Shown here: in pieces, positions 4,947 through 53,242 of the stretch | How the letters are laid out: the number at the start of each line of letters is the position of its first letter | Position numbering within the stretch: the first letter of the stretch is position 1 | DNA from: Candidatus Sulfomarinibacteraceae bacterium | Lineage (GTDB): Bacteria > Acidobacteriota > Thermoanaerobaculia > Thermoanaerobaculales > Sulfomarinibacteraceae | Direction of reading: 5' to 3' | DNA: 64,000 nucleotides | Assembly (NCBI GenBank): GCA_963796455.1 | Contig: CAWCLO010000001.1 | Span: 359,372 to 423,371, forward strand | Made by a program: the position numbers and the translations under genes | The notes under the pieces: generated by a model | What the model saw: the letters and a program-made list of their open reading frames with translations, nothing else | The model's database searches: none | Told to the model about the DNA's origin: nothing

Positions 4947-7298
4947 TTAACCGGCGGCCGGCTCCATTTTGAGCGTCACGCCTCTTGCCTCAGCCACTGC
5001 CGCAAGAACTGCCTGTCCATACGACAATCCCCCGTCACCCGGCGGCAACTGGCGCGGCAGCAGGACCTCATGCCCAATGGCCACGAAGCCCGCGCTCAGT
5101 TGAGAACACAGGATCCGATTGACCAGACATCCCCCACCCAGCGCCACTGGATCGGTCGATTCTCCGCTGACTCGTCGAGTGATCTCTACCACCAGGCTAG
5201 AGAAGGTCTTATGAAAACCGAGGGCCACCCTTGAAGGGTCCTGCCCATCGACCACCCTGCGTGCGGCCGCGGCGAGGAGGCTCTTCGAGGGCAGAACCGG
5301 GTCTCCGGAGGTCATATCAATCTCGACCTCAGACCAGACTTCGGCCGATCCCGCCGCCTGCGCTGCCAAAGCCTCGAGCCTCGCTGCAGCTTCACCTTCC
5401 CAGCGATTCGATTCGGTCACGCCCAACAGAGCTCCTGCCGCCTCGAACACGCGTCCCGCCCCGGAAGCAAGCGGCCACCCGGAATCCTCCGCGAGCCGCC
5501 GCACCGAATCCATGCGAGCAGTCTCAACGAGATTGGCCATCGGCGTGGCGGCGATCAGATCGGCATGTCCGCTTCGCACCAACGCCGCCACCGCGACCCG
5601 CCACGGCTCACGCACCGCCGCCTCGCCCCCGATCAGATCCAGAGCTTCGAGATGGGCAAGCCGCCGCCACGAAAGATCGCCCTGGATCTCCAGCCACTCG
5701 CCGCCCCATGAGGTCTCGTCGGGCCCCCACCCGGTTCCATCCAAAGCGATGCCGAGTGCCGTCTTCCCCGGGTCTGGGAAGTTTCCACTTTCGGCGAGCA
5801 CCGCAGCAATGTGGGCTAAATGATGTTGGACCTGGACCAGCCTCGCGCCGTGGGTCTCGGCCAATTCTCGCGCGTACCAGGAACTCGGGTAATCCGGGTG
5901 CAAATCGGCGACGACCACATCGGGGGTGGCCTGAAGAAAATCGAGCAAACCCTCGATGACCTCGCGATGAAACTGCCGGGCCGGCACCGACTCGAGATCG
6001 CCCACGTGTTGCGTGGGAAAGGCGCGATTTCCCTGCGCGACACACCCCGTGACCTGAAGGAATCCCCCGACGGCCACAACGACCGCGAGCGAAGATACCG
6101 GCAGGGGCACCGGCTCCGGTACCCAGCCCCGAGCCCGCCGAACCAGAATCGGGCCCAGTTCCGAGCTCCTCACCACCGAGTCATCCACCCGGCGCACAAT
6201 GTCGCGGTCGTGCAACAAAAAGAGATCGGCGATACCAGTCAGCCGTTCGACGGCCTCTCGATTGCCGCGACACAGGGGTTCTTCCGAGAGATTGGCCGAG
6301 GTCATGACCACGGGTGGCAACCGCGGGTCGCGGGTCAGTTCGATGTGCAGGGGCGTGGTTGGGATCATGACCCCGAGATCATCGAGCCCTGGTGCCACCT
6401 CGTCGGAAATCGGAGCCTCCTGACGACGTGGAGCAAGGACGATGGGCGCCCTGGAAGATGCCAACAGGGCCTCCGACTGCTCCTCGAGGTGGACCACGGA
6501 TCTCGCGACCTGAAGGTTACGAACCATCACCGCAAAGGGTTTCCCAAAGCGGCGCTTTCGCCGACGCAGACGATTCACCACGTCGGGATCGTCGGCCCGG
6601 CAGGCGAGTTGGAATCCTCCGAGCCCCTTGACCGCTACGATTCGACCATCGAGGAGCGCTTGTTGCGCCTGGACGATGGGATCCTCCGAGGTGATCAACT
6701 CCTCGCCGTTCTCGTCGGCCAGCCACAAACGGGGGCCGCAACGTGGACAGGCCACGGGCTCTGCGTGGAAGCGCCGATCCGCAGGGTCCCCGTATTCACG
6801 CTCGCAGTCCGGGCAGAACGGGAAACACGCCATCGACGTCCGTTCACGATCATATGGCAGGCTCTTGACCAGTGAGAATCTCGGACCGCAATTGGTGCAG
6901 GTCGTAAAGGGGTAGTGATGGCGTCGATCCATCGGGTCTTCGACCTCACGCCGGCAGTCCGCGCACAGGACGGTATCGGGTGGCACCAGGGCCCCTTCGG
7001 GGCGCCCGGTCGTCGAGGTCCGGACTTCGAATCCTTCGGCCTGCACGGGATCCAGTTCTACTCGCTCGATCGCATCGAGGTGCGCCAGGGGCGGCAGTTC
7101 GGAGCGCAGCCGTTCGACGAAGAGATCGATCATCTCCGATGATCCCTCAACCTCCGCGGTCGCGCCCAACGGATCGTTGATGACCCACCCCGCGAGACCG
7201 ATTGATGTCGCGATGCGGTGGACGGTCGGGCGGAAACCCACACCCTGAACGGTGCCGCGACACCGGAGCTGGACGCGAATCAGTTGTTTGCCAATCAA
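4947..7298 (-). CDS. hypF: carbamoyltransferase HypF
   Basis: 783 aa. Acylphosphatase-like N-terminus (VQGVGFRP). Two zinc-finger pairs (CADCRREV...CTNCGPRF; CPDCEREY...CPRCGPRL). YrdC-like and Kae1-like C-terminal parts. TTG start in a TTGA overlap with the hypB stop. Confidence 0.92.
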   Translation of the reverse strand: MIGKQLIRVQLRCRGTVQGVGFRPTVHRIATSIGLAGWVINDPLGATAEVEGSSEMIDLFVERLRSELPPLAHLDAIERVELDPVQAEGFEVRTSTTGRPEGALVPPDTVLCADCRREVEDPMDRRHHYPFTTCTNCGPRFSLVKSLPYDRERTSMACFPFCPDCEREYGDPADRRFHAEPVACPRCGPRLWLADENGEELITSEDPIVQAQQALLDGRIVAVKGLGGFQLACRADDPDVVNRLRRRKRRFGKPFAVMVRNLQVARSVVHLEEQSEALLASSRAPIVLAPRRQEAPISDEVAPGLDDLGVMIPTTPLHIELTRDPRLPPVVMTSANLSEEPLCRGNREAVERLTGIADLFLLHDRDIVRRVDDSVVRSSELGPILVRRARGWVPEPVPLPVSSLAVVVAVGGFLQVTGCVAQGNRAFPTQHVGDLESVPARQFHREVIEGLLDFLQATPDVVVADLHPDYPSSWYARELAETHGARLVQVQHHLAHIAAVLAESGNFPDPGKTALGIALDGTGWGPDETSWGGEWLEIQGDLSWRRLAHLEALDLIGGEAAVREPWRVAVAALVRSGHADLIAATPMANLVETARMDSVRRLAEDSGWPLASGAGRVFEAAGALLGVTESNRWEGEAAARLEALAAQAAGSAEVWSEVEIDMTSGDPVLPSKSLLAAAARRVVDGQDPSRVALGFHKTFSSLVVEITRRVSGESTDPVALGGGCLVNRILCSQLSAGFVAIGHEVLLPRQLPPGDGGLSYGQAVLAAVAEARGVTLKMEPAAG

Positions 7299-7966: not shown

Positions 7967-8012
7967 CTTGGGGACCTCTCCTACCGGAATCTTCGCCTCA
8001 CCGGAAACAGCC

Positions 8013-8375
8013 TCAATCCGACGGCTCGTCGGTTTCAAAACTGAGATCGATCACATCGAGTTCATCACCGCCGGTGACCTCCAGCGGCATGCCGCAGTCG
8101 GCACACAACCGCATCCAACTTCCCTCCGACCGGTCCTTGTCCTCATCACATTGAGCGCAATGTTGAGTCGCGGTGCACCACTGAATGACAAGTTCGGCGT
8201 CCACATCGGGGCCTTCGGCAACAACAGCCTCCCAGGCGTAGACCAGGAGGTCGGGTTCGACCGCCGAGAGCTCGCCGACGGCGAGGCGAACCCGCTGCAG
8301 TGTCCCACCGCCATGCTCTTCGACCGTTTCGCGGCTGGTCCGGTAGACCTCGAGTGCGATACCCATTTCGTGCAC
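8013..8375 (-). CDS. hypA: hydrogenase nickel insertion protein HypA
   Basis: 120 aa. N-terminal MHE(M) with a GTG start. Zinc site CAQC...CADC. Confidence 0.9.
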   Translation of the reverse strand: MHEMGIALEVYRTSRETVEEHGGGTLQRVRLAVGELSAVEPDLLVYAWEAVVAEGPDVDAELVIQWCTATQHCAQCDEDKDRSEGSWMRLCADCGMPLEVTGGDELDVIDLSFETDEPSD

Positions 8376-8396
8376 CTGGACAGTATACCGAGCACG

Positions 8397-8452
8397 AAAG
8401 GGAGAAAGGGAGAAAGGGAGAAAGGGGGAAAGGGGGAAGGGGGGAAAGGGAG
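8397..8452. repeat. tandem 8-mer array (AAAGGGAG)x7, slightly degenerate
   Basis: Read directly. The same word array recurs at 9465-9503 and, reverse-complemented, at about 29398-29433. Confidence 0.9.
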
Positions 8453-8548
8453 ATCGCCAGTCGATCTGTCCGAGATTGGAGAACCAGGGTCCATATGGCA
8501 GAGGGGCGGAGGGGCAGAGGGGCTAGATGCTGGATGCTGGATGCTGGA

Positions 8549-9172
8549 TCACTCTTGTCCAAGATAAAGTCTCAGACAGCGATCAGGGACGGCGGCAGCG
8601 ATCAGCGTCAGCGACAGGGAACAGCGATCAGCGTTCAGCGTTCAGCGTCAGCGTCAGCGTCAGCGAACAGTAGTCAGCGTCACGTTTGATTGGTATGGAG
8701 CACTGAAATCAAGACTTTGGGTTGAGTAAACGCCATGTCATGGCACGGACTTGATCGAAGGCCTTCGTCGCTTCACCGGCTCCGTTCGGGCTGATCGCCT
8801 CGGCGTGGGCGAGGAGCTGCAAGTGGTTGTCGACCTCTTTGGCCGAGGCGTAGGCGATTCTCCAGTGGTTCGACCGGTCTCTACCGACTCGGCCGCCCAC
8901 CGGCTACCCCTTCCTTTGAACGATCCGGAGGTGGCCGCTTCGTCGCCTGTACTCCTGACCGCTGCCGCTGGATACTGACCGCCGTCCCTGACCGCTGTCT
9001 CTGTTCGCTGTTGCCTGTCGCTGCCGCTGGACACTGTCGCCGCCGCTGCAATTCGGACGCGGGCACGGGCACAGGCACGGGCAACCGCGAACCGGATATG
9101 CCGAAAACCAACCCATAAACCACGTGTTGTCATGTGGGAAACTCCAGGTGACGATCTATTTTGGACAGCGGT
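8549..9172. mobile_element. TIR-bounded four-helix-bundle element, copy A (deletion derivative)
   Basis: Left end CACTCTTGTCCAAGATAAAGTCTCAGACAG. Right end GACGATCTATTTTGGACAGCGGTG, its imperfect inverse. The interior has a CAGCG-rich arm, a truncated four-helix gene, a CGCTG-rich arm and a conserved ~125-nt module. Confidence 0.65.
8709..8900 (-). pseudogene. truncated four-helix-bundle protein (23S rRNA IVS / Avd-like), C-terminal half only
   Basis: 63-aa ORF GGRVGRDRSNHWRIAYASAKEVDNHLQLLAHAEAISPNGAGEATKAFDQVRAMTWRLLNPKS. It aligns to residues ~65-128 of the intact copy at 12547-12900. Confidence 0.75.
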
Positions 9173-9288
9173 GATGCTGGATGTTCGATCGAGCCCGAGC
9201 CCGTTGCCGTTGCTGAGCGGGGAAAGGGAGACCCGAACCGGAAGCGATGGACGTGACCGAATCTCCCTGAATCAGAGTGTCGCCTCCC

Positions 9289-9441
9289 GATGTCATCCTG
9301 AGGGGAGCCCCGCCTTGTCACGGCGCAGCCTGAAAGGCGAAGCCGGAAGGGGCGTAGTCGAAGGATCTATGGGATGAATGGAACACCTCAGTCCGCAGAT
9401 CCTTCGACTTCGCGCCAGGGGCGCTTCGCTCAGGATGACAT
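9289..9441. repeat. long palindromic unit PE1 (GATGTCATCCTGAG ... CTCAGGATGACAT)
   Basis: Outer arms GTCATCCTGAGxGGAGC / GCTTCGCTCAGGATGAC. Inner arms GTAGTCGAAGGATCT / AGATCCTTCGACT. A second copy lies at 21280-21400 in the same orientation. Confidence 0.8.
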
Positions 9442-9464
9442 CTTGAACGACAGTTCCGTTCCCG

Positions 9465-9503
9465 AAAGGGGAAAGGGAGAAAGGGAGAAAGGGAGAAAGG
9501 GAG
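9465..9503. repeat. tandem 8-mer array (AAAGGGAG)x5
   Basis: Read directly. It is a direct repeat of the array at 8397-8452. Confidence 0.9.
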
Positions 9504-9540
9504 AACCATACCGGAGACTTAGTTCGTGATAAGGGCGGGT

Positions 9541-9700
9541 CTCCTCTGCTCCTCTGCTCCTCTGCTCCTCTGCTCCTCTGCTCCTCTGCTCCTCTGCTCC
9601 TCTGCTCCTCTGCTCCTCTGCTCCTCTGCTCCTCTGCTCCTCTGCTCCTCTGCTCCTCTGCTCCTCTGCTCCTCTGCTCCTCTGCTCCTCTGCTCCTCTG
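9541..9700. repeat. perfect microsatellite (CTCCTCTG)x20
   Basis: 160 bp with no mismatch, ending 37 bp upstream of the ATG at 9738. A short copy of the same word lies at 21483-21498. Confidence 0.97.
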
Positions 9701-9737
9701 CGCGAGACTCGGGTGGGGTGTACAATGCCCGCTGTTT

Positions 9738-11255
9738 ATGACACTCCCACGCATCGTCATCACCGGCGCATCGGGCTTCATCGGCCGCAATCTTCTGCGA
9801 GACTTCAAGAACGATTTCAAAATCGTCGGTTTGGCCCGTCGTTCACAACTCCATTGCGGAGCGCCGATTCACAACAACATCACCTGGTATCAGGTCGACA
9901 TCGGCAACCGCGAACAACTTGCCACCGCATTCAAGTACATCCGCGAGTCGGGCGGAGCCGACTATGTGATCCACCTCGCCGCCCACTACGATTTCACCGG
10001 TGAGAACCATCCCGAGTATTGGCGGACCAATGTGGAAGGCATGCGCAACGTGCTGGAGGAGTGTCGCGGCCTCGATCTGAAGCGTTTCATCTTCAGTTCT
10101 TCGATCGCAGCCTGTGAATTTCCCAGAACCGGCGAAACGCTCAACGAAGAGAGTCCGCCCGATGGCGAACATGTTTATGCGGTGACCAAACGCATCGGCG
10201 AGGAGATGCTGGTCGAGTACGACGACATCCCGTCCTGCATCATCCGTCTCGCCGCGTTGTTCTCCGACTGGTGTGAATACGCTCCACTGTATATCTTTCT
10301 CGAGACCTGGCTTTCGGATGTGTGGAACAAGAACATCCTCGGTGGTCGAGGCACCACCGCCATCCCTTATATGCACGTCCGCGAGATGGGGCCCTTTCTC
10401 CGCCGTCTGATGGAGCGGGGAGATTCGATCGGGCAACGGGAAGTCCTTCTCGCCAGCCCCAACGAAACACTTTCCCACAAAGAGCTCTATGACCTGGCCA
10501 ACATCGATTATTTCGGCCAACGCCGGCGCCCGATCTTCATGCCCAAGGCCCTCGCCCAGATTGGTGTCTGGGGCCGCGATCTGATCGGTCGCCTGCTGGG
10601 TAACCGGCCCTTCGAACGCCCTTGGATGATTCAGTACCTGGACACCGATCTCGCTGTCGACACCAGCCGTACAAGCGAGCGTCTCGGGTGGAGACCGAGA
10701 AAACGCCTGCTTCTCCAGCGTCGGATGCCCTTCATGGTCGAATACAGAAAAACGAATCCCAACGAATGGCACCGTCTCAACCGCGCTGCCCTCAAAGAGG
10801 TTCATCTCCGCGACAATTTGCGGATCAACGGATTGCTCGAAGTGCACCTGGATTCGATCTGCACCGAATTTCTCGACCAGATGCAGTCTCCTGGTTCGGC
10901 GTCGCGTTTTCCGTCCTATCAGAATGTTGCCAGGGACCGCCTCGAGTGGCGTTTCATCATCCTGCTACGCCATCTTCAGAGCTCGATCCGAACCCACGAC
11001 CGCGGTCTCTTTACGACCTACTGCAGAGACCTGGCGGAAAAACGGCTGATGCAGGGCTTCGGGGTGCGCGAAGTGGTCGGTGCACTGCTGACGATGAATT
11101 CCATTTGCGTCGACACGCTGCGATCGGACCCCGAGGGCGAAGACCTCGGCACGGCGATCCACGACTACCTCTCGATGACCGTCCAGTTCGGTTGTGATCA
11201 GATCCTGGAGATCTATGAAGAGGTTGGTGGCGAAGAGATCGACGAAGACTTTTGA
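9738..11255 (+). CDS. NAD-dependent epimerase/dehydratase (extended SDR) with ~170-aa C-terminal extension
   Basis: 505 aa. Rossmann motif VITGASGFIGRNLL. Catalytic YAVTK (YxxxK). I do not recognise the helical C-terminal region. Confidence 0.8.
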   Translation: MTLPRIVITGASGFIGRNLLRDFKNDFKIVGLARRSQLHCGAPIHNNITWYQVDIGNREQLATAFKYIRESGGADYVIHLAAHYDFTGENHPEYWRTNVEGMRNVLEECRGLDLKRFIFSSSIAACEFPRTGETLNEESPPDGEHVYAVTKRIGEEMLVEYDDIPSCIIRLAALFSDWCEYAPLYIFLETWLSDVWNKNILGGRGTTAIPYMHVREMGPFLRRLMERGDSIGQREVLLASPNETLSHKELYDLANIDYFGQRRRPIFMPKALAQIGVWGRDLIGRLLGNRPFERPWMIQYLDTDLAVDTSRTSERLGWRPRKRLLLQRRMPFMVEYRKTNPNEWHRLNRAALKEVHLRDNLRINGLLEVHLDSICTEFLDQMQSPGSASRFPSYQNVARDRLEWRFIILLRHLQSSIRTHDRGLFTTYCRDLAEKRLMQGFGVREVVGALLTMNSICVDTLRSDPEGEDLGTAIHDYLSMTVQFGCDQILEIYEEVGGEEIDEDF

Positions 11256-11310
11256 GTTCGGAATTCGGAGTTCGGAGTTCGTAGTTCGGAATTCGGAGTT
11301 CGGAGTTCGG
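11254..11310. repeat. tandem 8-mer array (AGTTCGGA)x7, slightly degenerate
   Basis: Read directly. It begins inside the stop codon of the SDR gene. Confidence 0.9.
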
Positions 11311-11406
11311 CTATAGGGCCCACGCTCTCCATCTCAACCCATAGGTCATGAACACACATCTGCGTTTTTCTGCGCTTTCTGCGGTTCCTCCGATTGGTGG
11401 CCGATT

Positions 11407-11793
11407 TCAGCCTCTGGCAACCGCCCGGTGCACCAGATATGCCACCAACGCCATCGCGCCATCGGCAAAGCCGGAGAACCACACGGACCACGGGGTGTCG
11501 GCAATCAGCGATCCACCGATGAGAAAGACAAAGGCCGAGCTCTTGGCGATCAGCAACATATTGATGGTCCCATGTTGTTTGTACTCCACCACATATCCGG
11601 CCGCGAGCACGAAGTGAAACGCCCCCGCCTGCCAGATGAAGAAGATCGGATCAGCGCCGTCCCAACCGGCAAAAGCCACCGCCCATTCGGAAAAGAACAT
11701 CAGCATGATGCCGACGATGAAGCTGTGGAGGGCGATCAGACCGATGAGGATCTTTTCGTGCGTTGTGGTCAGTTTCAAGGCCATCATGCCCAC
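11407..11793 (-). CDS. small integral membrane protein (about 4 TM), function unknown
   Basis: 128 aa with hydrophobic segments. 10-nt overlap with the end of the protease gene suggests co-transcription. Confidence 0.55.
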   Translation of the reverse strand: MGMMALKLTTTHEKILIGLIALHSFIVGIMLMFFSEWAVAFAGWDGADPIFFIWQAGAFHFVLAAGYVVEYKQHGTINMLLIAKSSAFVFLIGGSLIADTPWSVWFSGFADGAMALVAYLVHRAVARG

Positions 11794-12308
11794 CAGATAT
11801 CGAGTTCGAGGGGAGGATCTCGACGTACGGCGGGACAGCCGAGTCTCTCGAGTTCAGCGAGCACCGTTTCAGTAACCGCGGGAACCGCATTTTGCACGGC
11901 ATCTGTCAGCGCGGTGCCCTGCCCGGTTGTCTCAGGCACGACTCCGACGAGGAGAATTTCATCCGGACTCGAGTCCGAAAATTCGGTCGCCATGAGTGCC
12001 TCGCGAAGACCCGGCTCATGGGGGCTCATACGGGAAGGGGGTGGCGTCGAGACGATCTCTCCGTCGCGAAGCAGACGCAGGCTGCCAGGTTCCTGCTTGC
12101 CACTGATCGTGTCGATCACAATCACCATTCGGGCATCCGCCAGGTAGGGCGTGAGATCCATCCCCGGGGTCCCGAGGTCGATCACCTCGACACCCTCTGG
12201 AAACTCGTACCCGGCCTCGAGGACCTTGATCGTGTAGGGCCCGAGACCGTCGTCTGTACACAAAATGTTACCGACACCGAGAATGCGGACGGGCTTGGTC
12301 TCAATCAT
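11784..12308 (-). CDS. hybD: [NiFe]-hydrogenase maturation endopeptidase (HybD/HyaD family)
   Basis: ILGVGNILCTDDGLG, DLGTPG and VIVIDT motifs. I chose ATG 12308 (MIETKPVRILGVGN); the ORF-track start at 12434 lies in repeat DNA. Confidence 0.85.
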   Translation of the reverse strand: MIETKPVRILGVGNILCTDDGLGPYTIKVLEAGYEFPEGVEVIDLGTPGMDLTPYLADARMVIVIDTISGKQEPGSLRLLRDGEIVSTPPPSRMSPHEPGLREALMATEFSDSSPDEILLVGVVPETTGQGTALTDAVQNAVPAVTETVLAELERLGCPAVRRDPPLELDIWWA

Positions 12309-12421
12309 CCGATGATTGTGCCAGAGCGGTGGGGTGATGGATAGTGCAGATATTCGAGTTCTCGGATCGGATGATCGATCCTCGGCGCTGGATACTGGAT
12401 GCTGGATGCTCGTTTCTGGAT

Positions 12422-13208
12422 CACCCTTGTCCAAGACAGAGTCTCAGACAGCAACCGGGGACAGGGACGGGGAACGGCGGACAGCGTCAGCGAACGGTTG
12501 TCAGGGTCAGCGATCAGCTATCAACAGCAGCGACAGACAGCAGCGCTCACCTTTTCGGGTTCAAGAGCCGCCAGGTCATCGCACGGACCTGATCGAACGC
12601 CTTCATCGCTTCACTGGCTCCGTTCGGGCTGATCGCCCCGGTGTGGGCGAGGAGTTCCAAGTGGCTGTCGACCTCTTTGGCCGAGGCGTAGGCGATTCTC
12701 CAGTGGTTCAACCGGTCTCTACCGAAACGGCCGTGGCCTTCTGCAAGGTTCGCAGGGACTGAACTCGCCGATCGGACGACCTGATCGGCTATGGATTTCA
12801 GCGGAGCCGGAACCCTCATCACGAGTTTGATCGCGATGCCTGCTGCTTCGAGTGCTTTCGAGTGGGCAACGAGGTTGGTGTTCGTGGCGGCGTTGGACAT
12901 GGTCACCTCCGGGTCGTTCATGCCCATACCCACAAGCCGGTGTGGTGGCCGATGTCAAGGATGCCCTGCACCCTGCCTGTCCTTGACATCGGCCGCCCAC
13001 CGGCTACCCCTTCTGTTGAACGACCCGGTGGTGGCCACTTCGTCGCATGTACTCCTGATCGCTGCCGCTGAACACTGATCGCTGATTGCTGTTCTCTGTC
13101 GCTGCTTCCTGTCGCTGCCGCTGGACACTGTCGCTGTCGCTGATTCCTGTTGACTGCCCCTGCCCCTGCCTCTGAACGCTATCCGAGACCCTTTCTCGGA
13201 CAAGAATG
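12422..13208. mobile_element. TIR-bounded four-helix-bundle element, copy B (intact gene)
   Basis: Left end CACCCTTGTCCAAGACAGAGTCTCAGACAG. Right end GCTATCCGAGACCCTTTCTCGGACAAGAATG, its inverse. CAGCG/CGCTG arms flank a complete four-helix gene. It lies between the hybC terminator and hybD. Confidence 0.65.
12547..12900 (-). CDS. four-helix-bundle protein (23S rRNA intervening-sequence protein / DGR Avd-like family)
   Basis: 117 aa from ATG 12900 (GGAGGTG 5 nt upstream). MSNAATNTNLVAHSKALEAAGIAIKLV...SASSVPANLAEGHGRF...HWRIAYASAKEVDSHLELL is the family pattern as I recall it. Confidence 0.75.
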   Translation of the reverse strand: MSNAATNTNLVAHSKALEAAGIAIKLVMRVPAPLKSIADQVVRSASSVPANLAEGHGRFGRDRLNHWRIAYASAKEVDSHLELLAHTGAISPNGASEAMKAFDQVRAMTWRLLNPKR

Positions 13209-13239
13209 ATGCCGCATCCAGTATCCGGCATCCAGCATC

Positions 13240-13267
13240 AAAAAAAGCCGGGGGCGAAGCCCCCGGC
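13240..13267 (-). terminator. rho-independent terminator after the hydrogenase large subunit
   Basis: Minus strand reads GCCGGGGGCTTCGCCCCCGGC followed by TTTTTTT, 22 nt after the stop at 13290. Confidence 0.8.
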
Positions 13268-13289
13268 GATTGAACAGGTTTGGTGCTAC

Positions 13290-14990
13290 TTACAGCACTC
13301 TCACCTTCGACTTCTCGTTGCCTTCCGTATCGTGGGTGTGGATCGCACACGCCAGACACGGGTCGAAGGAGTGAATGGTCCGCAAGACCTCGAGCGGCCG
13401 TTCTTCGTCAGCGATCGGGTTGCCGACCAGCGACGCCTCGTAGGGCCCCATCCGGTCGTTTCCGTCACGCGGCCCGGCATTCCAGGTCGAAGGAACAACG
13501 CACTGATAGTTTTTGATCTTGCCGTTTTCGATGACGCACCAGTGCGACAGGGTGCCGCGCGGCGCCTCGTGGAAACCGAATCCCTGGATCTCACCCGCCG
13601 GGAACTCGAATGGGGTGAAGATATCGGTGTCGCCCGATGCGATGTTGGCAACCAAAGCCTCCCAATGGGCGAGGGCCTGGTGAGCGATAACCCGTGCGCG
13701 AATGGCCCGGGCCGCGTGGCGTCCAAGAGTCGAATGCAGCACGGCCGGAGTCAGCTTGGCACCCGCGATGCTGCCCGCAACGTCGAGGAACTCGAGCGCG
13801 AACTTGGTGGTCATCTCGTCGCCGGCTGCCAGGGCGGCGAGCACCTGAGCGAGCGGTCCAACCTGCATCGGTTCGTCGTTGAAACGCGGTGCTTTGACCC
13901 ACGAATAGCGGCCGTTGTAATCGTACTCGGAGTACGCCGGGACGGTGTCCTCTTCCCACGGATGTTTCTGCCAGTCGCCGTCGTACCACGCATGAGCGAT
14001 CGATTCGGCGACATTGTCGCGGAAAAGAGGATCGTTGAACGATGTGATGGCCTGGAAGCTGCCCAGGTCGGCGTTCATGATGACTCCGCCAGGCATCTGG
14101 AACTGGGTGCCCTCGGCATTCAGCGGCAGTTCAGGAACCGACAGGTAGTTGGTGACACCGGCGCCGTAGCCGAGCCACGGAGCATACATGGCGCCGATCG
14201 CGGCCACGTCGGTGAAATAGACCTGGTCGATAAAGGTCTTGACCTCTTCCAGATAGCCTTTGATCTGATAGAGCTTCGCCATATTGAGCGTCGCCTCGTT
14301 GTCGAGGTTGATGGCATTGGCCACACCACCGACAGCGAGATTCTGGATGTTGGGAGTTTTGGAACCCAGCACCGTGACGACCTTGTTGGCGATCTTCTGG
14401 ACCTCGAGAGCCTGCAGGTAGTGCGAAACTGCCAGCAGATTCACATCCGGCGGCAGATCCATCGCCGGGTGGCCCCAATAACCGTTGGTGAAAATACCAA
14501 GCTGGCCTTTGGAGACGAAGTCTGCAACCTTGGCCTTGACGGCCGCAAGGTCCTTCTCGCCGTTACCGGGCCAGTCGGACAGCGACTCAGCAAGGCGTGC
14601 CGTGGTTCTCGGATTGCCGTCGAGGGCCGACACGACGTCAACCCAGTCGAGCGCCGACAGGTGGTAGAAGTGGACAATGTGGTCGTGCAGCGAGTGCGCC
14701 GAAATCAATAGATTGCGGATCAACTGGGCGTTAAGCGGCGGGTTGATCTGGAGCGCGTTCTCAACCGATCGCACCGATGCGATCGCATGAACTGTCGTGC
14801 ACACACCGCAGATGCGCTGGGTGAAGACCCAGGCGTCTCTCGGATCGCGGCCTTCGAGAATCTTCTCGATGCCGCGCCACATCTGACCGGAGGACCAGGA
14901 ATTGGTGACCTTCCCCCGGTCGACCTCGACGTCGATGCGCAAATGACCCTCGATGCGAGTGATCGGGTCTACAGTGATCGTTTTGGCCAT
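13290..14990 (-). CDS. hybC: [NiFe]-hydrogenase large subunit, group 1 (Hyb-type context)
   Basis: RIEGHLRIDVEV, L1 motif RICGVCTTVH, and C-terminal DPCLACAIH plus a 15-aa extension (protease substrate). ATG 14990 is preceded by GAAGGGGGGG. The ORF-track start 15059 overlaps the upstream gene. Confidence 0.93.
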   Translation of the reverse strand: MAKTITVDPITRIEGHLRIDVEVDRGKVTNSWSSGQMWRGIEKILEGRDPRDAWVFTQRICGVCTTVHAIASVRSVENALQINPPLNAQLIRNLLISAHSLHDHIVHFYHLSALDWVDVVSALDGNPRTTARLAESLSDWPGNGEKDLAAVKAKVADFVSKGQLGIFTNGYWGHPAMDLPPDVNLLAVSHYLQALEVQKIANKVVTVLGSKTPNIQNLAVGGVANAINLDNEATLNMAKLYQIKGYLEEVKTFIDQVYFTDVAAIGAMYAPWLGYGAGVTNYLSVPELPLNAEGTQFQMPGGVIMNADLGSFQAITSFNDPLFRDNVAESIAHAWYDGDWQKHPWEEDTVPAYSEYDYNGRYSWVKAPRFNDEPMQVGPLAQVLAALAAGDEMTTKFALEFLDVAGSIAGAKLTPAVLHSTLGRHAARAIRARVIAHQALAHWEALVANIASGDTDIFTPFEFPAGEIQGFGFHEAPRGTLSHWCVIENGKIKNYQCVVPSTWNAGPRDGNDRMGPYEASLVGNPIADEERPLEVLRTIHSFDPCLACAIHTHDTEGNEKSKVRVL

Positions 14991-21279: not shown

Positions 21280-21400
21280 GATGTCATCCTGAGCGGAGCG
21301 CCTTTGGCGCGTAGTCGAAGGATCTGCGTCTCGGAATCTTTGTGTTCCGTCTCATAGATCCTTCGACTCGGCCGTCGAACGGCCTCGCTCAGGATGACAT
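21280..21400. repeat. palindromic unit PE1, second copy
   Basis: GATGTCATCCTGAGCGGAGCG...GTAGTCGAAGGATCTG...AGATCCTTCGACT...CGCTCAGGATGACAT. Confidence 0.8.
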
Positions 21401-24780: not shown

Positions 24781-25195
24781 TAGTAACTCGATACTCGATG
24801 CTCGATACCGGATCGATTCGCGTTCCGGAGAAACCGCAGATCACGCAGATGAACGCAGATCACGCATCGCAATTGCCAGCGATAGAAAACGTCCCGATGG
24901 GTCAATTCGATGGCAAACCCCACACTCCCACGTCACAACCAACAAGACACCAAGGAACACCGTTGAGTTCATCGTGCCCGACAAGAGAGCTCTGTCAGAA
25001 TCGGAGTCCGTTCTTCATCGGAAATCGATAAGAGAATTTGAGGTCAGTATGTACTTGGCGATTTCTTGGTGTTCTTGGTGTCTAGGTGGTGAATGATTCG
25101 CCACCATCCAGTGGGAACTCCCTGGATAGAGCGATAGCGATTGCGACGGTCAATCTGCGTTCATCTGTGTGATCTGCGGTAACTCCGGTTGACCC
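24781..25195. repeat. nested inverted-repeat mosaic (CTCGATR words, PE2 motif pair, CACCAAGRA words, GCGATAGCG word)
   Basis: PE2 GGAGAAACCGCAGATCACGCAGATGAACGCAGATCACGC at 24827-24865, and its inverse at 25153-25186. Inner inverted pair GACACCAAGGAACACC / GGTGTTCTTGGTGTC. Confidence 0.75.
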
Positions 25196-29196: not shown

Positions 29197-29471
29197 GAAT
29201 CGCTCCTTGAGGGAGTATACGCACCGTTCCGGCGTTCTCCGCACGAAGATGAAGCAAGGGTCATGCCATCTATATGAACGGGAGTGACGGAACCTGGGGG
29301 AATGGGAGGCCATGGATCAGCAACGCGGGAATGCCTGGTTCACATCGAACGTCGTCTCGTGCTGAAGATCAGAAGTCGGGAGAGAACCAACGTGTGGTCG
29401 CCCTTTCTCCCTTTCTCCCTCTCTCCCTTTCCTTCGTTCTGCGCCGGGCGCAGCAATGAGGGCGAAAACAA

Positions 29472-31396: not shown

Positions 31397-31511
31397 GAGG
31401 GCCCGGTCGCTCGATGCTCGATGCTCGATTCTGGATGCTGGATCGTGTCGCGTTTCGGAGAAACCGCAGATAGCGCCGATGAACGCAGATCAGGCATCCA
31501 GCATCCAGTAT

Positions 31512-32237
31512 CACTCTTGTCCAAAACAGTGTCTCGGACAGGGTTCAGGGACAGCGACGGAGAACGGTAGACAGCGGCAGCGAACAGTTGTCGGCGGCAG
31601 CGACAGGGTCCAGCGTCAGCGACAGGCAGCAGCGAACAGGGACAGGGAACAGCGGTCAGTGTTCAGTGTTCAGCGACGGAGCGCAGCGGCAGCAGTCTGG
31701 AATTCAGGCGACGCAGTGGCCACCTCCGGGTCGTTCAACAGAAGGGGTAGCCGGTGGGCGGCCGAGTTGGTAGAGACCGGTCGAATCACTGGTGAATCGC
31801 CTACGCCTGGGCGAAAGAGGTCGACAGCCACTTGCAGCTCCTCGCCCACGCCGGGGCTATCAGCCCGAACGGAGCCAGTGAAGCGATGAATGCCTTCGAT
31901 CAGGTCCGTGCCATGACGTGGCGTTTACTCAACCCAAAATCTTGATTTCAGGGCTTCATACCAGTCAAACATGACGCTGCCTCCTGTTCGCTGACGCTGA
32001 ACACTGATCGCTGTTCGCTGTTCGCTGTCGCTGCTCACTGTCGCTGCTCACTGTCGCTGTCCCTGTTCGCTGTTGCCTGTCGCTGACGCTGGACACTGTC
32101 GCTGCCGCTGTAATTCGGACGCGGACGCGGACACGGACACGGGCAACCGAGAACCGGATATGCCAAAAATCAACCTGTGAACCTCGTGGTGTCAGGCGGG
32201 CAACTTCACCTGACAATCTGTTTTGGACAACAGCGGT
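31512..32237. mobile_element. TIR-bounded four-helix-bundle element, copy C (deletion derivative, cargo inverted)
   Basis: Left end CACTCTTGTCCAAAACAGTGTCTCGGACAG. Right end CTGACAATCTGTTTTGGACAACAGCGGT. It has the same arms and 125-nt module as copy A, but the gene is on the plus strand. Confidence 0.65.
31754..31945 (+). pseudogene. truncated four-helix-bundle gene with in-frame stop
   Basis: GGRVGRDRSNHW*IAYAWAKEVDSHLQLLAHAGAISPNGASEAMNAFDQVRAMTWRLLNPKS. TGA at 31793-31795 replaces the Arg codon of copy A. Confidence 0.75.
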
Positions 32238-33845: not shown

Positions 33846-33930
33846 GGCTTGGGGCTTGGGGCTTGGGGCTTGAGGGGGTTGGGGCTTGGGGCTTTGGGGC
33901 TTGGGGCTTGGGGCTTGGGGTTGGGGCTTC
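33846..33930. repeat. tandem 8-mer array (GGGGCTTG)x~10
   Basis: Read directly. When translated it gives the spurious GLGLGAWGL N-terminal extension of ORF 33825. Confidence 0.9.
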
Positions 33931-33960: not shown

Positions 33961-34007
33961 AGCCTCAGCCTCAGGTCCCAGGTCCCAGGTCACCGGTCTC
34001 AGGTCTC
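33961..34007. repeat. tandem 6-7-mer array (AGCCTC / AGGTCYC)
   Basis: agcctcagcctcaggtcccaggtcccaggtcaccggtctcaggtctc. Confidence 0.85.
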
Positions 34008-34088
34008 AAGCCCCCGTATCAGCTACAATGTCGACGTACGCAGTCGAATATCGGAATCGTCGATCGACCCGAGGAGGATACTCCGCCA

Positions 34089-36974: not shown

Positions 36975-37037
36975 CTGCGCTCATCGCACTATGACGCAAC
37001 AAAAATGATGCAACCACAGGGTCTTGGAGGCCGCACC

Positions 37038-40000
37038 ATGAGACGCATTCTTAGTTTCATTTTCCTTCTCACGCTCATTTCCGCACCTGCCATCGTCGGC
37101 GCTCAGCAGGCTGGCGACAACATTAATGTCCTACCGTTGGTTCCGAACGTCGATTCGTCCGACCCAGGCTATGATCCCGATTGGTTTCTGAAGGGTGACG
37201 GCTACCTACAGCGTCAGCTGGAGCCGACAATCGCCGCATCGACCCGCAACCCGGACCACCTGCTCGCGTTCTTCAACGATTACAGGGCGGTGGATGTGGG
37301 TGACGACATCGGACTCGGCGAAGGCGAAATCGGATCGGCCGCCCTCAAGACCCTCAACCTCATGCTGGCTTCGGTGCCATGGCTGCAAATTCCAGACCTT
37401 GGTATCACGATGATTCGCCCGCAGCCGATGGCGGCGTCCGAAGCATGGGTGGGTATGAGTCGATCTTATGATGGCGGCCTGACCTGGAGTGGCGGCTTCT
37501 TGCCCGGCGCACCCTTCGACGGCTCCCCCGCATCGCTCGATTCTCCCGTCTATGGCCTCGAGGCGGCCACCGATCCGGTGACCGTCTGCGGTCCGTGCGG
37601 CCAATTCTATACTGTCTTCGTCGCCTTCACTCGCGGCGGCCAGAGCAAGCTCGCGGTCGCGCGTTATGAGGACCTCAACAATGACCCCGGCGGCGACACC
37701 CTGGTGTACAAGGGCACGACCGTTGTCGACTCTGGAGCCAACGCGAATTTCGGGCATTTCCTCGACAAGCCCCATATCGCCATTGATGTCTGGCGCAATG
37801 AATCATCAAAAGCGGGAATTGAAAAGAAGAAAAAGCCGAAACCCTCGGAAGACAACGACGATCCCTGCGCGCATCGCGTTTACGTGAGCTACAGCACCTT
37901 CACCGGAAAACCGAAACCCAACAAATTCCAGAGCAAACTCTACGTTGCGACGTCGGAGGATGGTGGCGAGACTTTCAACAGGACAAAAATCAACAAGAAC
38001 TTCGGTCAGAACCAGGGATCGGCCCTCGCTGTCGATCCACGCGAAGGAACTCCGACGACAACCGGGGGCGGAACCCTCTATGCGTTCTGGCGTCATTTCA
38101 ACGGTCCTGACAGCATCGTCATGACCAAATCGCTCGATTTCGGCGGTTCGTGGAGCAGACCGGAGCAGATCATCGGCAGCACGCCGATGGCGCCATTCGA
38201 TCAGCCGACGATTTCGACCCAGGCCGTCTACGATTTCGGTTTGTTCGACCCCATCACCGGTTTGCCCGAAGTTGCTTTTCGTTCGAACGGATTCCCCACC
38301 GCCACCGTCGCGACCGACCCCCAAGGTGATGCAACCGTATTTGTAGGTTGGCAGGAGCGGGTTGGCGGTGACGGCTACCCGCTCGAAAACGGAACGCCCC
38401 GGATCGTGCTGATGCGCTCCGACGACGACGGCGATTCGTGGACGGACATCGAAGGCAACCCCGGTCAGCGGAAAGCCGTCGATATCGGCTGGCGCGACCT
38501 CGAGAGTGATCCAAGTGCTCCCGAGCCAGGATTTGGGACTGTGCCTCTCGAGCGCCCCTCGGGACCCCAGATCCAACCCGCCCTCTCATTTGCCGGCGGG
38601 CGATTGATGATGGTGTACTCAGAGTCCCGCGGTCGGATCGCCAACTACGGCAACCCTGATCTTGAAGAAATCCTGACGTCGCAGTTCAACCCGGACGCAG
38701 ACATCGATTCGCAAACCGGTTTCATCAGCGGCTACGATCGACTGATGGATCATCGCGCCGCGCTGCTCGACCCCGCGACCGGTGAACTGTTGTCGACGGT
38801 GCAGGTTTCGCGCTATCCCTTGAGGGCAGGTTCAGACCTTGCCGACGGCGAGGACTATGAGGACGTCGCGCCGATCAACCCGCCGTGCTCGCCGGACTAT
38901 GACGCATACTTCAACGCGGGTGAACTCAACCCCTGCGTGCGCCAACTCAACCGCGTCAACGCAGTGACCTCGGCCGCCGGAACCTCTCCATTTGTCGGGG
39001 ACTACCCGGGGATCCATCCCTTCGTCCAGTTCGTGACCGACTCCGAAGGCAACTGGCGGTGGGCGACCGATCCCGATGACCTCACAACCCGCGGTTTCCA
39101 CACCATCTGGGCCGACAATCGCCACCTGATTCCGCCGCAAAACCCGTCACCTGGAAGTCCATGGGTCGAATGGCAGGACTATCCCAACTATGACGCACCC
39201 GGGTCAGGCGATCTTTCCTGTGCCAACCCGGGATCGCGCAACACCGATGTGTTGACCTCGAGGGTTGATGCCGAGCTGGTCATCAATTCGCCGACGACCT
39301 TCAAGGCGATCGGCGCCACCGGGGCTAGCTTTCCGTTTTCTATCGGCAACAAGACGGGCGAAACCAGAACCTACCAGATCAGCATCGAACCGGATGATGG
39401 CAATGCCTCATTCCTGTCGCGCTCGGTGGTGACCACGGCCTCGGTCGAGATCTTTCCCTTCTCGAGCACCTCGCAGGTGGTCTATGTTTCGGGGCCGACG
39501 ACCGACCCCATCAAGGTCACTGTCCAGGAGACCGGCGGTTGCGGCAGCGATTGCCAGAGCGGCACCATCGTCTTCAACGCCCACCAGAGCATGGCCTCGG
39601 AACAACTCGCTTCGGAGGAGTTCTTCAACCCGACGGTCACGCCCGACGCGTTCGTCATCAATCAGAATCTGGAAAACGCTTTCGTGATCAACCAGGGTGC
39701 TGAAAACGCATTCGTCATCAATCCAACAGTTGACAACGCCTTCGTCATCAACGGCGGCACGGAGAATGCGTTCGTTATCAATGCATTTGTCATCAACGCA
39801 TTCGTCATCAATGCATTTGTCATCAACAGCGGCCTCCCGGCAAAGGCAGGGGAAGAGCCCGAGTACTACGATATCCACAACATCATCGACACAACCTGGA
39901 CGGTGACTCCAGGTGAGAGCACCGATGCCTCGAGCTTTCTGCCAATCATCAATATCGACAAGGCGGAGCAGTTCCTCGACAAGTACGTCTTCCAACTCAT

Positions 40001-41444
40001 CGTCCACAAGGGCGCGCTCTACGGTTCCCCGAGTTTGGAGGGTTGCGACTCAACCAATGTGAACCAGCCGCAGATCCTCTCGACCTTTGCGCAGGGCCCG
40101 GGCACCAACCCTGCCGACGCCTTTGTCATCAACCCGGCGCCAAAAAATGCCTTCGTCATCAACCAGGGATTTCCCGGCGATGCCTTTGTCATCAACTCGA
40201 CATTTACCGTCGCACCATCCGACGACGGCCCGGACAACTCAAAGAACGGCTCCCTGAGCAACGACGGCACGCTCAAAGCTCCGCGCGCGCCGGACACCGT
40301 CAACGTCACCCTGCGGGCCTATCAGATCGTGCCTGACGAAGAGTTGGGTGAGTTCCGCTATAACCCGTTCCCCGCGGACGACCCGAACAATCCGAACCCA
40401 GGCACGGCCGGCGATCGCGCATCCTTCGCCGCATCCTCACACAACTGCGACACCCTGGATCCCTTGTCAGAGTGTTTCGAGTTCAACGCACCGGACCTCG
40501 TGCCCATCGACGTTGATCCAACCGAAATCCTACCGACTCTGGTCGGCGAAAGCTTCGACTTTCCGTCCTGGACCCTGCTCAACCAGGGAACGACGGATGG
40601 CAACGCCGAGAACGACGATCTTCGTCATGGCTTCTATCTCTGTCCGCGCTGGGTTGTGGCAGATGCTCCGGAGGATCTGACGCTCGACCTTTCGCCGTGC
40701 ACACAGTTCATTGACGAAGGAGAGATCCTGTTCACCACCGACAACTCCCTCCCGCCTGCGGGTGAAGATGATTTCGATGCAACCACGTTGAACATCCCGG
40801 AAGGAACCCTGCCGGGTCTCTACGACGTGGTGCTCTACGTAGACGATCTCTTCCAGGTCTCAGAGTTCATCGAAGTCAACAATTACGCATCGGTACCCAT
40901 CATCGTCATCGACGAGTTGCTCGAGAACGGCGGTTTCGAGACGCCGGACGTGGCCGCCGGAGCCTGGGCCCTCTTCGAAAACGGGACGGATGGGCTCGAT
41001 TGGAGCTTCGAGTGGGTGAATTGCGGTGGCTGCGAAACCGATCCACTGCTCGAGATTCAGAGCAGCGGCGTGGTGATCACCACACCGGACGGCGGTCAGG
41101 TCGCCGAACTCGACTCCGACTTCGGCGGTGCGGAACCGGGCAGCCAGACGAGTCTGCGCCTGTACCGCGATTTCGACACCTGCGAGGGAGTCACCTACAC
41201 ATTCGACTATTCGTGGGCAAAACGCACCGGCTCGGATTTGATGACCGTCTCATGGGACGGATTTGTCTTCGCGACACACGGTGCAGGCGCTCCGACCCTG
41301 CAATGGAATGTGGAGAGCTGGGAACTCGATGGCGACGGATCGACCATTCGTCTCGAGTTCGTTGAGACCGGACCGGCCGATTCGTTGGGCATGCTGCTCG
41401 ATGCCGTGAGCCTGATCGGACCGCTTTGCCCGAACGTTGAATAA
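37038..41444 (+). CDS. giant secreted protein: BNR/Asp-box (sialidase-like propeller) + AFVIN repeat region + C-terminal DUF642/CBM-like domain
   Basis: Signal peptide MRRILSFIFLLTLISAPAIVGA after GGAGG. Asp-boxes SYDGGLTWS, SEDGGETFN, SLDFGGSWS and SDDDGDSWT. 11 AFVIN motifs. C-terminal LLENGGFETP... domain. Confidence 0.8.
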   Translation: MRRILSFIFLLTLISAPAIVGAQQAGDNINVLPLVPNVDSSDPGYDPDWFLKGDGYLQRQLEPTIAASTRNPDHLLAFFNDYRAVDVGDDIGLGEGEIGSAALKTLNLMLASVPWLQIPDLGITMIRPQPMAASEAWVGMSRSYDGGLTWSGGFLPGAPFDGSPASLDSPVYGLEAATDPVTVCGPCGQFYTVFVAFTRGGQSKLAVARYEDLNNDPGGDTLVYKGTTVVDSGANANFGHFLDKPHIAIDVWRNESSKAGIEKKKKPKPSEDNDDPCAHRVYVSYSTFTGKPKPNKFQSKLYVATSEDGGETFNRTKINKNFGQNQGSALAVDPREGTPTTTGGGTLYAFWRHFNGPDSIVMTKSLDFGGSWSRPEQIIGSTPMAPFDQPTISTQAVYDFGLFDPITGLPEVAFRSNGFPTATVATDPQGDATVFVGWQERVGGDGYPLENGTPRIVLMRSDDDGDSWTDIEGNPGQRKAVDIGWRDLESDPSAPEPGFGTVPLERPSGPQIQPALSFAGGRLMMVYSESRGRIANYGNPDLEEILTSQFNPDADIDSQTGFISGYDRLMDHRAALLDPATGELLSTVQVSRYPLRAGSDLADGEDYEDVAPINPPCSPDYDAYFNAGELNPCVRQLNRVNAVTSAAGTSPFVGDYPGIHPFVQFVTDSEGNWRWATDPDDLTTRGFHTIWADNRHLIPPQNPSPGSPWVEWQDYPNYDAPGSGDLSCANPGSRNTDVLTSRVDAELVINSPTTFKAIGATGASFPFSIGNKTGETRTYQISIEPDDGNASFLSRSVVTTASVEIFPFSSTSQVVYVSGPTTDPIKVTVQETGGCGSDCQSGTIVFNAHQSMASEQLASEEFFNPTVTPDAFVINQNLENAFVINQGAENAFVINPTVDNAFVINGGTENAFVINAFVINAFVINAFVINSGLPAKAGEEPEYYDIHNIIDTTWTVTPGESTDASSFLPIINIDKAEQFLDKYVFQLIVHKGALYGSPSLEGCDSTNVNQPQILSTFAQGPGTNPADAFVINPAPKNAFVINQGFPGDAFVINSTFTVAPSDDGPDNSKNGSLSNDGTLKAPRAPDTVNVTLRAYQIVPDEELGEFRYNPFPADDPNNPNPGTAGDRASFAASSHNCDTLDPLSECFEFNAPDLVPIDVDPTEILPTLVGESFDFPSWTLLNQGTTDGNAENDDLRHGFYLCPRWVVADAPEDLTLDLSPCTQFIDEGEILFTTDNSLPPAGEDDFDATTLNIPEGTLPGLYDVVLYVDDLFQVSEFIEVNNYASVPIIVIDELLENGGFETPDVAAGAWALFENGTDGLDWSFEWVNCGGCETDPLLEIQSSGVVITTPDGGQVAELDSDFGGAEPGSQTSLRLYRDFDTCEGVTYTFDYSWAKRTGSDLMTVSWDGFVFATHGAGAPTLQWNVESWELDGDGSTIRLEFVETGPADSLGMLLDAVSLIGPLCPNVE
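39645..39827 (+). repeat. in-frame AFVIN repeat cluster (8 units; the last 4 are a 4 x 15-bp tandem array with only synonymous differences)
   Basis: DAFVINQNLENAFVINQGAENAFVINPTVDNAFVINGGTENAFVINAFVINAFVINAFVIN. A second cluster of 3 units lies at 40116-40196. Confidence 0.95.
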
Positions 41445-52474: not shown

Positions 52475-52515
52475 CCTGATCCTGGATGCTCGATACTGGA
52501 TGCTCGATGCTCGAT

Positions 52516-53073: not shown

Positions 53074-53160
53074 CGTTTCCGTGGGGGTGCCCTTCGTCAA
53101 ATGGGCTGAGATCACACCCCTCGAACCTGATCCGGGTCATGCCGGCGGAGGAAATGGAGA
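53074..53160 (+). promoter_or_regulatory. TPP (THI-box) riboswitch
   Basis: UUUCCGUGGGGGUGCCCUUCGUCAAAUGGGCUGAGAUCACACCCCUCGAACCUGAUCCGGGUCAUGCCGGCGGAGGAAAUGG. This matches the thiM-type aptamer core (GGGGUGC, CUGAGA, ACCUGAUCYGGNUNAUGCCRGCG). P1 is UUUCC/GGAAA. It lies 83 nt upstream of the receptor ATG. Confidence 0.88.
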
Positions 53161-53242
53161 CGCCCACCCCCTTGCCGTGGCGCATTTGGAGCGGGCATCC
53201 CTTTTGTACCGGCCCACCCAAAGTATTCGGAGCTACGGACCC

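Follow-up and report, generated by a model that had tools for sequence, protein, structure and literature searches.

Intervening sequences (IVSs) that carry an open reading frame (ORF) for an S23p protein are known from the 23S rRNA of Coxiella burnetii, Leptospira and Brucella (PMC4990558). These sequences form a stem-loop that is excised by RNase III, their ORF is poorly translated and decaying, and the region upstream of the start codon is variable (PMC4990558). Another PF05635-like protein is Avd, the accessory protein of diversity-generating retroelements (DGRs) (PMC10053308). Here, we describe a family of nested palindromic elements that carry a gene for a PF05635 protein outside rRNA and occur in four copies (A, B, C and D) within 64,000 nt of contig CAWCLO010000001.1 (positions 359,372 to 423,371, forward strand) from Candidatus Sulfomarinibacteraceae bacterium, a stretch referred to below as the window. 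Copies A and C have lost the same segment of the gene and its leader, and the junction so formed, here called J1, is a defective allele that is present in multiple copies and is not private to A and C. To our knowledge, no function has been assigned to the widespread PF05635 proteins except in DGRs, and their association with IVSs has never been explained. In the literature on PF05635, TIGR02436 and IVS proteins we found no published account of multi-copy palindromic PF05635 elements. The family looks undescribed, and it is more interesting than the junction shared by two of its members.

The rRNA IVS with an S23p ORF is the closest described system. In both cases, a PF05635 ORF is placed within an element bordered by long complementary stem-loop sequences, and its translation signals are poor or occluded (PMC4990558). 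The borders of the window elements are inverted-repeat arms, and single-strand folds of copies A and B have energies of -276 kcal/mol (z=-5.4 against shuffled sequences) and -413 kcal/mol (z=-10.1), respectively. The variability of IVSs upstream of the start (PMC4990558) is reminiscent of the deletions described below, in which the region upstream of the start is the part that gets deleted. Unlike the IVSs, however, the window elements reside outside rRNA, with hydrogenase, hyp and other protein genes on their flanks; an Rfam search found no rRNA in the window, and only a thiamine pyrophosphate (TPP) riboswitch. Furthermore, they occur in many copies per genome, whereas there is one IVS per rrl gene, and they have nested shells (heptamer arrays, L/R modules and arms of CAGCG repeats) as well as a conserved leader hairpin.

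Other known elements are more distant. REP/BIME, ERIC and the neisserial Correia elements are hairpin-forming intergenic repeats that are co-transcribed with their neighbours and prone to recombination and to insertions and deletions. They are non-coding and much shorter, whereas the full window element carries a conserved gene with a translational hairpin. The protein belongs to the same superfamily as Avd, but its context is one of palindromic repeats and not a DGR cassette. No reverse transcriptase is found among the annotated neighbours of A and B (genes of the hyp, hydrogenase, epimerase and protease kinds). A template/variable repeat pair was not noticed either, although no dedicated search for one was made.

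Architecture of the element family

The four copies are intergenic, being placed between protein-coding genes, and have a size of 0.45-0.8 kb. Their outermost layer consists of short arrays of 7-nt units (GCTGGAT and variants) that flank A in direct and B and D in inverted orientation and are found on one side only at C. Next come the end modules. Module L begins ATCACYCTTGTCCAAGA, and the opposite end is made up either of its complement, L' (in B), or of a ~125-nt module R that terminates in TTTTGGACAGCGGTGAT (in A, C and D). Terminal inverted repeats are present in all four copies, with ATCAC(Y)CTTGTCCAARA at one end and the complement at the other. Inside the end modules are two arms of ~100 nt, composed of CAGCG-type 6-7-nt repeats and their complement, and the innermost layer is the core.

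Copy B (12420-13205, minus strand) is intact and symmetric. Its L and L' ends pair near perfectly, so that the element forms one giant nested hairpin, and its core comprises a 144-nt leader followed by a gene of 117 codons. Copy A (8549-9172, minus strand) is internally deleted and has, in sense order, an R module, an arm, half a leader, a gene remnant, the second arm and an L module. Its left arm (8577-8682) is made of CAGCG-type 6-7-nt repeats and is complementary to the right arm (8958-9046), and its R module (9047-9172) is common to C, D and the external locus L005 and is not found in B. Copy C (31512-32237, plus strand) has the same deletion as A; compared with that copy, its core (31684-32000) has the opposite orientation with respect to the L and R end modules. 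A fourth copy, D (52515-52965, minus strand), was not among the three copies of the first-pass annotation. The L module, the arms and the R module are retained in D, and all that is left of the core is the 5' leader arm and the final ~12-20 nt of the ORF. The loss is a separate and larger deletion, independent of the one in A and C. Internally deleted elements outnumber intact ones by 3:1 in the window.

The gene of copy B (12547-12900, minus strand) encodes a four-helix-bundle protein of 117 aa that is a bona fide member of PF05635/TIGR02436 ("23S rRNA intervening sequence protein"). Its match to PF05635 (E=1.5e-15, 57.7 bits, cutoff 33.8) extends over profile positions 6-104 of 106, TIGR02436 is matched with 59.7 bits (cutoff 24), and there is a weak match to PDB 2GSC, a pentameric protein from Xanthomonas. 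More than 120 full-length relatives with 80-94% identity are found in public data, several of them on the same megabase contigs. One protein, P0122, encoded on an NCBI/ENA contig of 1,327,025 bp, is 100% identical to that of B. As a side observation, the collection that holds P0122 contains no relative of the 505-aa epimerase of the window above 84% identity. Either the P0122 genome is without this gene cluster, or identical four-helix genes are common to diverged genomes. The best named homologues of the epimerase are 71-80% identical and labelled "MAG: Acidobacteria bacterium" (MAG, metagenome-assembled genome), so that an uncultured acidobacterium is the probable host. Exact look-ups of the B protein, with either of its possible starts, and of the epimerase in one protein index gave no match.

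The leader of B (12896-13039, minus strand) is predicted to fold into a hairpin with a basal stem in which an arm complementary to the Shine-Dalgarno sequence and the start codon (anti-Shine-Dalgarno/CAT) pairs with the Shine-Dalgarno sequence and ATG. In intact leaders, CATGGTCACCTCCGGGTCGTTCA pairs with TGAACGACCCGGAGGTGACCATG, covering the ribosome-binding site and the start codon; written as a pair of arms, the basal stem is CATGGTCACCTCCGGGTCG with CGACCCGGAGGTGACCATG, and an inner box, GTCAAGGG...CCCTTGAC, is conserved as well. RNAalifold predicts 55 pairs from 11 copies belonging to at least three lineages, and 14 of these have changes on both sides. The hairpin is also seen in L003 (17497-17651) and in L008, L009, L014, L019, L025 and L032-L036. 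A second inner leader type of unrelated sequence, placed on the same basal stem, was observed in L003 (9834-10005), L004, L006 and L015. As modelled, the ~150-nt hairpin buries the ribosome-binding site and start codon of the gene. One possible path to expression is that the element is co-transcribed with neighbouring genes and that RNase III cuts the ~100-bp duplex of the arms, upon which the leader hairpin would open and allow translation.

Searches for other signals in the elements were negative. No known RNA family was found inside them by Rfam (at the gathering cutoff and at E<=1), no sigma-70-like promoter was found in 8000-13400, and there was no match of the element to a PADLOC defence family. 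A scan of genome contigs with 20 nt of the leader, GGTAGCCGGTGGGCGGCCGA, returned two chance matches only, in a Caldilineaceae MAG and an Acidobacteriaceae MAG, and scans of viral contigs returned the same unrelated matches or none.

The deletion shared by copies A and C

The first-pass annotation proposed that A and C have an identical internal deletion junction formed at a GGCCG microhomology, and that the defective form was itself propagated. The identity of the junction is borne out. It reads GGTGGGCGGCCGAGT(C/T)GGTAGAGACCGG in both copies, and the 28-nt junction GGTGGGCGGCCGAGTYGGTAGAGACCGG has exactly two matches in the window, with 0 expected by chance: one in A at 8874-8901 on the minus strand (GGTGGGCGGCCGA|GTCGGTAGAGACCGG) and one in C at 31753-31780 on the plus strand (GGTGGGCGGCCGA|GTTGGTAGAGACCGG). 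At the breakpoint, the intact leader of B reads GGTGGGCGGCCGA|TGTCAAGG (12989-13001), and the gene interior reads CACGGCCGTTTCGGTAGAGACCGG. What A and C lack relative to B is a segment of 262 nt (12727-12988, minus strand), bounded by a direct repeat that includes one more nucleotide than first described, CGGCCG; removal of this segment from B reproduces the arrangement of A and C. With the common CGA GTC (Arg-Val) codons in the parent, the repeat would extend to CGGCCGA.

The loss amounts to 56 codons of the gene, instead of the ~65 first estimated, with the break at G57-R58 of the 117-aa protein, and to 94 nt of the leader, including the distal hairpin with its 3' arm and the Shine-Dalgarno sequence. 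The ATG is lost, too. Copy A retains the 5' arm of the leader palindrome (8889-8975, minus strand), which contains the anti-Shine-Dalgarno sequence CACCTCCGGATCG and has its 3' partner deleted. The junction creates a GTG start, from which a remnant ORF of 63 codons (8709-8900, minus strand) corresponds to helices 3-4 of the PF05635 domain; its score of 20.7 bits is below the Pfam cutoff and covers profile positions 56-104. In C, an in-frame TGA at codon 14 (AGA->TGA, 31793-31795, plus strand) interrupts the remnant, in agreement with the earlier description.

The short form is derived and not ancestral, because A and C keep an orphan 5' arm of the leader palindrome together with only helices 3-4 of the domain. 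The opposite polarity, an ancestral short form and an insertion in B, had been raised beforehand as an alternative that could overturn the interpretation. No point in its support was found, and it is refuted to the degree that we assign it practically no probability. The protein of B spans the domain almost from end to end while the remnant begins at profile position 56, the full-length relatives are numerous and close, and of the leader palindrome, whose two arms show co-variation across 11 intact copies, A and C have kept the 5' arm alone.

Possible origin and spread of the junction

The 63-aa remnant ORF, starting from the GTG at the junction, was used as a query against a protein collection and retrieved a cluster of four 63-aa ORFs beginning (M/V)GGR(V/F)GRDRSNHW. 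The DNA of three of these carries J1, namely L005 and L046 on ENA contigs and L045 on a JGI contig, where the element lies upstream of rplU-rpmA, and the genes flanking these three are all absent from the window. J1 is, in consequence, verified in DNA at five distinct loci (A, C, L005, L045 and L046). The fourth 63-aa MGGRVGRDRSNHW ORF, P0345, probably carries J1 as well; it is encoded on the 1.33-Mb NCBI/ENA contig that also encodes P0122. In addition to the junction, A and L005 share a unique module past the R end, [CAGAGGAG]n-ACCCG..CTTATCACGAAC..CCGGTA-[CCCTTTCT]n (201-340 of L005 against 9172-9240 and 9440-9545 of the window, reverse complement), which was not encountered at any other place in the window or at the remaining loci. 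In the window, the module is split by ~270 nt that hold a GATGTCATCC hairpin element, and the genes of the far flanks differ. Such an arrangement suggests that a segment larger than the element was duplicated, or that the loci are rearranged orthologs. Simple orthology of L005 and A was considered and rejected, since the far flank gene of L005 differs and is absent from the window, although a rearrangement is possible.

The reading that we favour, with a confidence that falls somewhat short of even, is that J1 is a microhomology deletion allele of single origin that has spread by duplication and gene conversion among paralogous elements. The 262-bp deletion would have occurred between two CGGCCG(A) repeats, one at the foot of the GATGTCAAGG box of the leader hairpin and the other at codons 56-58, by a slipped-strand or microhomology-mediated event across the palindrome. 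It would have arisen once, on a copy with Val at residue 59, and would have reached at least five loci through duplication of element-containing segments and frequent homologous exchange among paralogs. Such exchange could also have flipped the core of C through the inverted arms, and gene conversion may have imported sequence from intact, selected genes into the remnants. A single origin followed by spread accounts for the occurrence of the exact junction at five or more loci, the flank shared by A and L005, and a linkage to Val59, which is found in 5 of 6 J1 copies compared to 28% of 72 intact relatives and fits descent from one copy of the Val type. Gene conversion with intact copies is required in this account because of a deficit of replacement changes and mosaic 3' ends, both described below.

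The main rival of the single-origin reading is recurrent independent deletion, in which codons 56-58 (GGCCG.GTCGG) are a hot spot and each J1 copy lost its 262 bp in situ. We regard it as less likely, if a possibility of real weight, and the evidence comes from a survey of other deletions in the family. When JGI metagenomes were scanned once with a 22-mer that is conserved in the C-terminal half of the gene, 30 loci were found, of which 4 were chance matches and the rest belonged mostly to a sister lineage. Nine truncated copies from this lineage have at least six junction types. J2 (GCTGCCG|GGTCGG) is found in L006 and L024; J3 (CACCTCCGG|GTCGG, with an 8-nt repeat CCGGGTCG) in L007, L013 and L035, which have differing shells; J4 lies in the hairpin loop of L026; and J5 (L012) and J6 (L016) have other interior breakpoints. 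Four junction types in the family, J1 included, end at the same interior motif, GGCCG.GTCGG. In the intact sister copy L003-2, 6 of the 10 longest direct repeats between leader and ORF map to codons 56-57, and this concentration accounts for the hot spot in the sister lineage. Junction types and leader partners correspond in number there, and the window lineage has one of each. Recurrence also explains, without extra assumptions, the low ratio of non-synonymous to synonymous substitution rates (dN/dS) in the remnants, the existence of three 3' haplotypes and the lack of derived changes common to A and C.

In the window lineage, by contrast, recurrence needs a hot spot for which there is no explanation. 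Between leader and ORF, copy B has 62 direct repeats with a length of 5 nt or more, and in 16 cases the length is 6 nt or more. The J1 pair is just one of these 16, and one 9-mer and three 7-mers have been left unused, so that microhomology alone does not predict J1 here. With 16-62 candidate pairs available, five independent deletions at the same pair are unlikely unless a hot spot exists. The outer flank unique to A and L005 and the over-representation of Val59 among J1 copies speak against recurrence as well.

Comparison of A and C reveals a mosaic history. Their L and R end modules (8545-8600 and 9045-9175 in A, 31505-31560 and 32107-32237 in C) match in direct orientation with 83% identity each, whereas the ~280-nt cores (8654-8970 and 31684-32000) match only as reverse complements, with 91% identity. 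This implies that the core of C has been flipped through the inverted CAGCG-repeat arms, or exchanged. J1 is linked to three haplotypes at the 3' end: the A/C type, the type of intact B (L005 and L045) and a sister-lineage type (L046). L005 and L046 are identical in the leader (78/78) and at 97 of 100 positions after the junction, and then drop to 71%. With substitutions polarised by three outgroups, there is no exclusive derived change common to A and C, and most differences that set these two apart from B are changes private to B. No phylogenetically informative site remains for any pair among A, B and C, such that a three-copy phylogeny cannot decide. Likewise, in a nearest-neighbour test with the 61-aa tails, the J1 copies do not group more closely with one another than with the best intact proteins.

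The substitutions are also unevenly distributed. Between A and C, changes are found at 7 of 128 replacement sites (5.5%) and at 54 of 357 silent and non-coding sites (15.1%; Fisher p=0.0047), and dN/dS is 0.26 among five J1 remnants compared to 0.18-0.26 among intact genes. This is not expected of dead DNA that has drifted since one deletion, and the remnant halves of A and C have evolved, during most of the interval since the two copies diverged, as though they belonged to a selected gene. Some relaxation is seen in the sister lineage, where dN/dS is 0.41-0.49 for truncated copies versus 0.21, and the changes unique to one J1 copy (10 synonymous and 17 non-synonymous) are nearer to neutral. 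It could be argued that the 63-codon remnant is still functional and is kept by selection as a two-helix half-protein translated from the junction GTG, which would account for its spread as well as for its low dN/dS. The sequence AAGGGG is found 6-7 nt upstream of this GTG, the frame is open in A, L005, L045, L046 and P0345, the dN/dS value is in line with constraint, and the deletion removes the very hairpin that occludes translation initiation. Nevertheless, we consider a functional half-protein very improbable: the frame of C is closed by its early stop codon, the junctions of the sister lineage are partly out of frame (J3), the changes found in single copies are close to neutral, and the remnant does not reach the Pfam cutoff. 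Moreover, there is an ascertainment bias, since three of the open frames came to light by virtue of being ORFs.

Several observations weigh against a single origin of J1. Deletions that end at codon 56-57 have recurred independently in the sister lineage (J2, J3 and J4). CGGCCGA has one leader partner in the window lineage and, given a hot spot, J1 is the expected recurrent product. The Val59 linkage could reflect the longer microhomology (CGGCCGA+GTC) of Val-type copies. Three of the five J1 copies in DNA were found with a J1-specific protein query, which biases the sample, and L005, L045 and L046 are on short metagenome contigs that are possibly assembly chimeras. If core non-coding and synonymous sites alone are taken as the neutral class (22/179), the deficit of replacement changes has p ~0.04 in a by-hand estimate. 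Finally, just as we infer slippage and a single origin from the junctions, gene conversion as the spreading process is deduced from mosaic patterns.

The first-pass annotation envisaged a single deletion followed by copying to a second locus, as in the non-autonomous derivatives known as miniature inverted-repeat transposable elements (MITEs). Applied to the present data, this would mean that one deletion gave rise to an element that was copied whole to new loci, mobilised in trans by intact copies. The window elements resemble MITEs in being small, intergenic, multi-copy and strongly structured, in their inverted ends (ATCAC..TGTCCAA, resembling terminal inverted repeats) and in the majority of internally deleted forms. 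The number of loci with J1, the R-type shell common to A, C, D and L005 and the extended flank shared by A and L005 can be read in the same way, as can presence and absence at orthologous sites. In L037, a relative with an 83% identical epimerase, the orthologous hyp/hydrogenase locus has spacers without an element: the spacer between hypA and the epimerase gene is 202 nt compared to ~1360 nt in the window, and that between the protease and large subunit genes is 193 nt compared to ~855 nt. In each of them, there is nothing more than a small palindrome built from lineage-specific heptamers. Elements A and B have thus been gained or lost relative to L037, but the mechanism is not indicated. The empty sites have no alignable flank with the window from which ends and target duplications could be defined.

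Unlike MITEs, however, the elements have no parent with a recognisable transposase. The PF05635 gene is the sole ORF of the intact element, in which Pfam and NCBIfam detect no transposase, nuclease or reverse-transcriptase domain, and no consistent target-site duplication was found around copies A-D. The heptamer arrays were considered as target-site duplications and rejected because they are variable flanks whose orientation, direct or inverted, differs between copies. In addition, C has a core inverted with respect to its ends, and neutral decay since one deletion would not be expected to produce either the deficit of replacement changes or the mosaic 3' ends. Pure copy-and-decay fits worst of the models that were weighed, the histories of shell and core being discordant, and whole-element mobilisation of this kind is rather unlikely. 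Of the original proposal, a deletion at direct repeats that produced a derived form and now resides at five or more loci still stands, while copying of the entire element is only partly supported. Propagation of the defective form is a plausible inference as regards the junction allele, and less so as regards the element as a mobile unit. More generally, in a recombining family with deletion hot spots, an identical junction is insufficient to infer propagation of a defective element.

Possible role of the protein and other repeats of the window

A more far-reaching possibility, which we regard as improbable, is that the elements make up an undescribed, self-propagating IVS-like class that colonises intergenic and operon spacers, with a spread that depends on the Avd/S23p protein and with J1 copies being mobilised in trans. 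The protein would be released from the translational hairpin, perhaps after cleavage of the long arms by RNase III. If true, self-propagation would give the PF05635 family a function in the propagation of elements. The lineage has multiplied a gene within a stem-loop, with 4 copies in 64 kb, more than 120 close protein variants and many natural deletion derivatives. It offers a comparative system for three questions: whether the elements are mobile, how their expression comes about and whether they need the protein in order to be maintained.

The protein collection also holds ~15 clusters of 52-54-aa ORFs that begin M(N/H)(H/F)WRIAYASAKE (P0162, P0190, P0191, P0205 and P0210-P0221). These may represent another truncation point, five codons downstream of J1, or internal Met starts.

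The window is rich in other repeats. Intergenic tandem arrays of 6-8-nt units (GAAAGGGA, GGCAGAGG, CTCCTCTG x20, GCTGGAT, GAGTTCG and GGCTTGG x12) are found at 8396-8453, 8497-8549, 9464-9505, 9541-9701, 11254-11310, 29401-29431, 33846-33929 and 33970-34008, often as inverted pairs around a hairpin or terminator. The same array architecture, built from other heptamers (GAGTTTT and TTAGGAA), is seen in L037 at 6840-6945 and 9640-9775. Another palindromic repeat occurs at 9280-9445 and 21280-21328 (GATGTCATCCTGAG...CGAAGGATCT / AGATCCTTCG...CTCAGGATGACATC). Its full hairpin copy at 9280-9445 adjoins A and is placed within the flank that is uninterrupted in L005, and the copy at 21280 is a 49-nt arm with 92% complementarity. 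A third repeat family with CGCAGAT-type units is located at 24787-25188 and 31417-31498; it forms an inverted pair at 24825-25188, and a half-copy with 85% identity abuts the L end of C.

Further features are found outside the elements. The TPP riboswitch (RF00059; 53073-53170, plus strand; 69.4 bits) is placed directly downstream of D and upstream of an ORF of 865 codons (53081-55678). Two very large ORFs contain internal repeats, one at 46003-50112 (minus strand) with 144-nt (48-codon) units at 46715-49697, and the other at 37005-41444 (plus strand) with 30-nt units (ACGCATTCGTCATCAA..., read as NAFVIN-like) at 39646-39827 and 40117.

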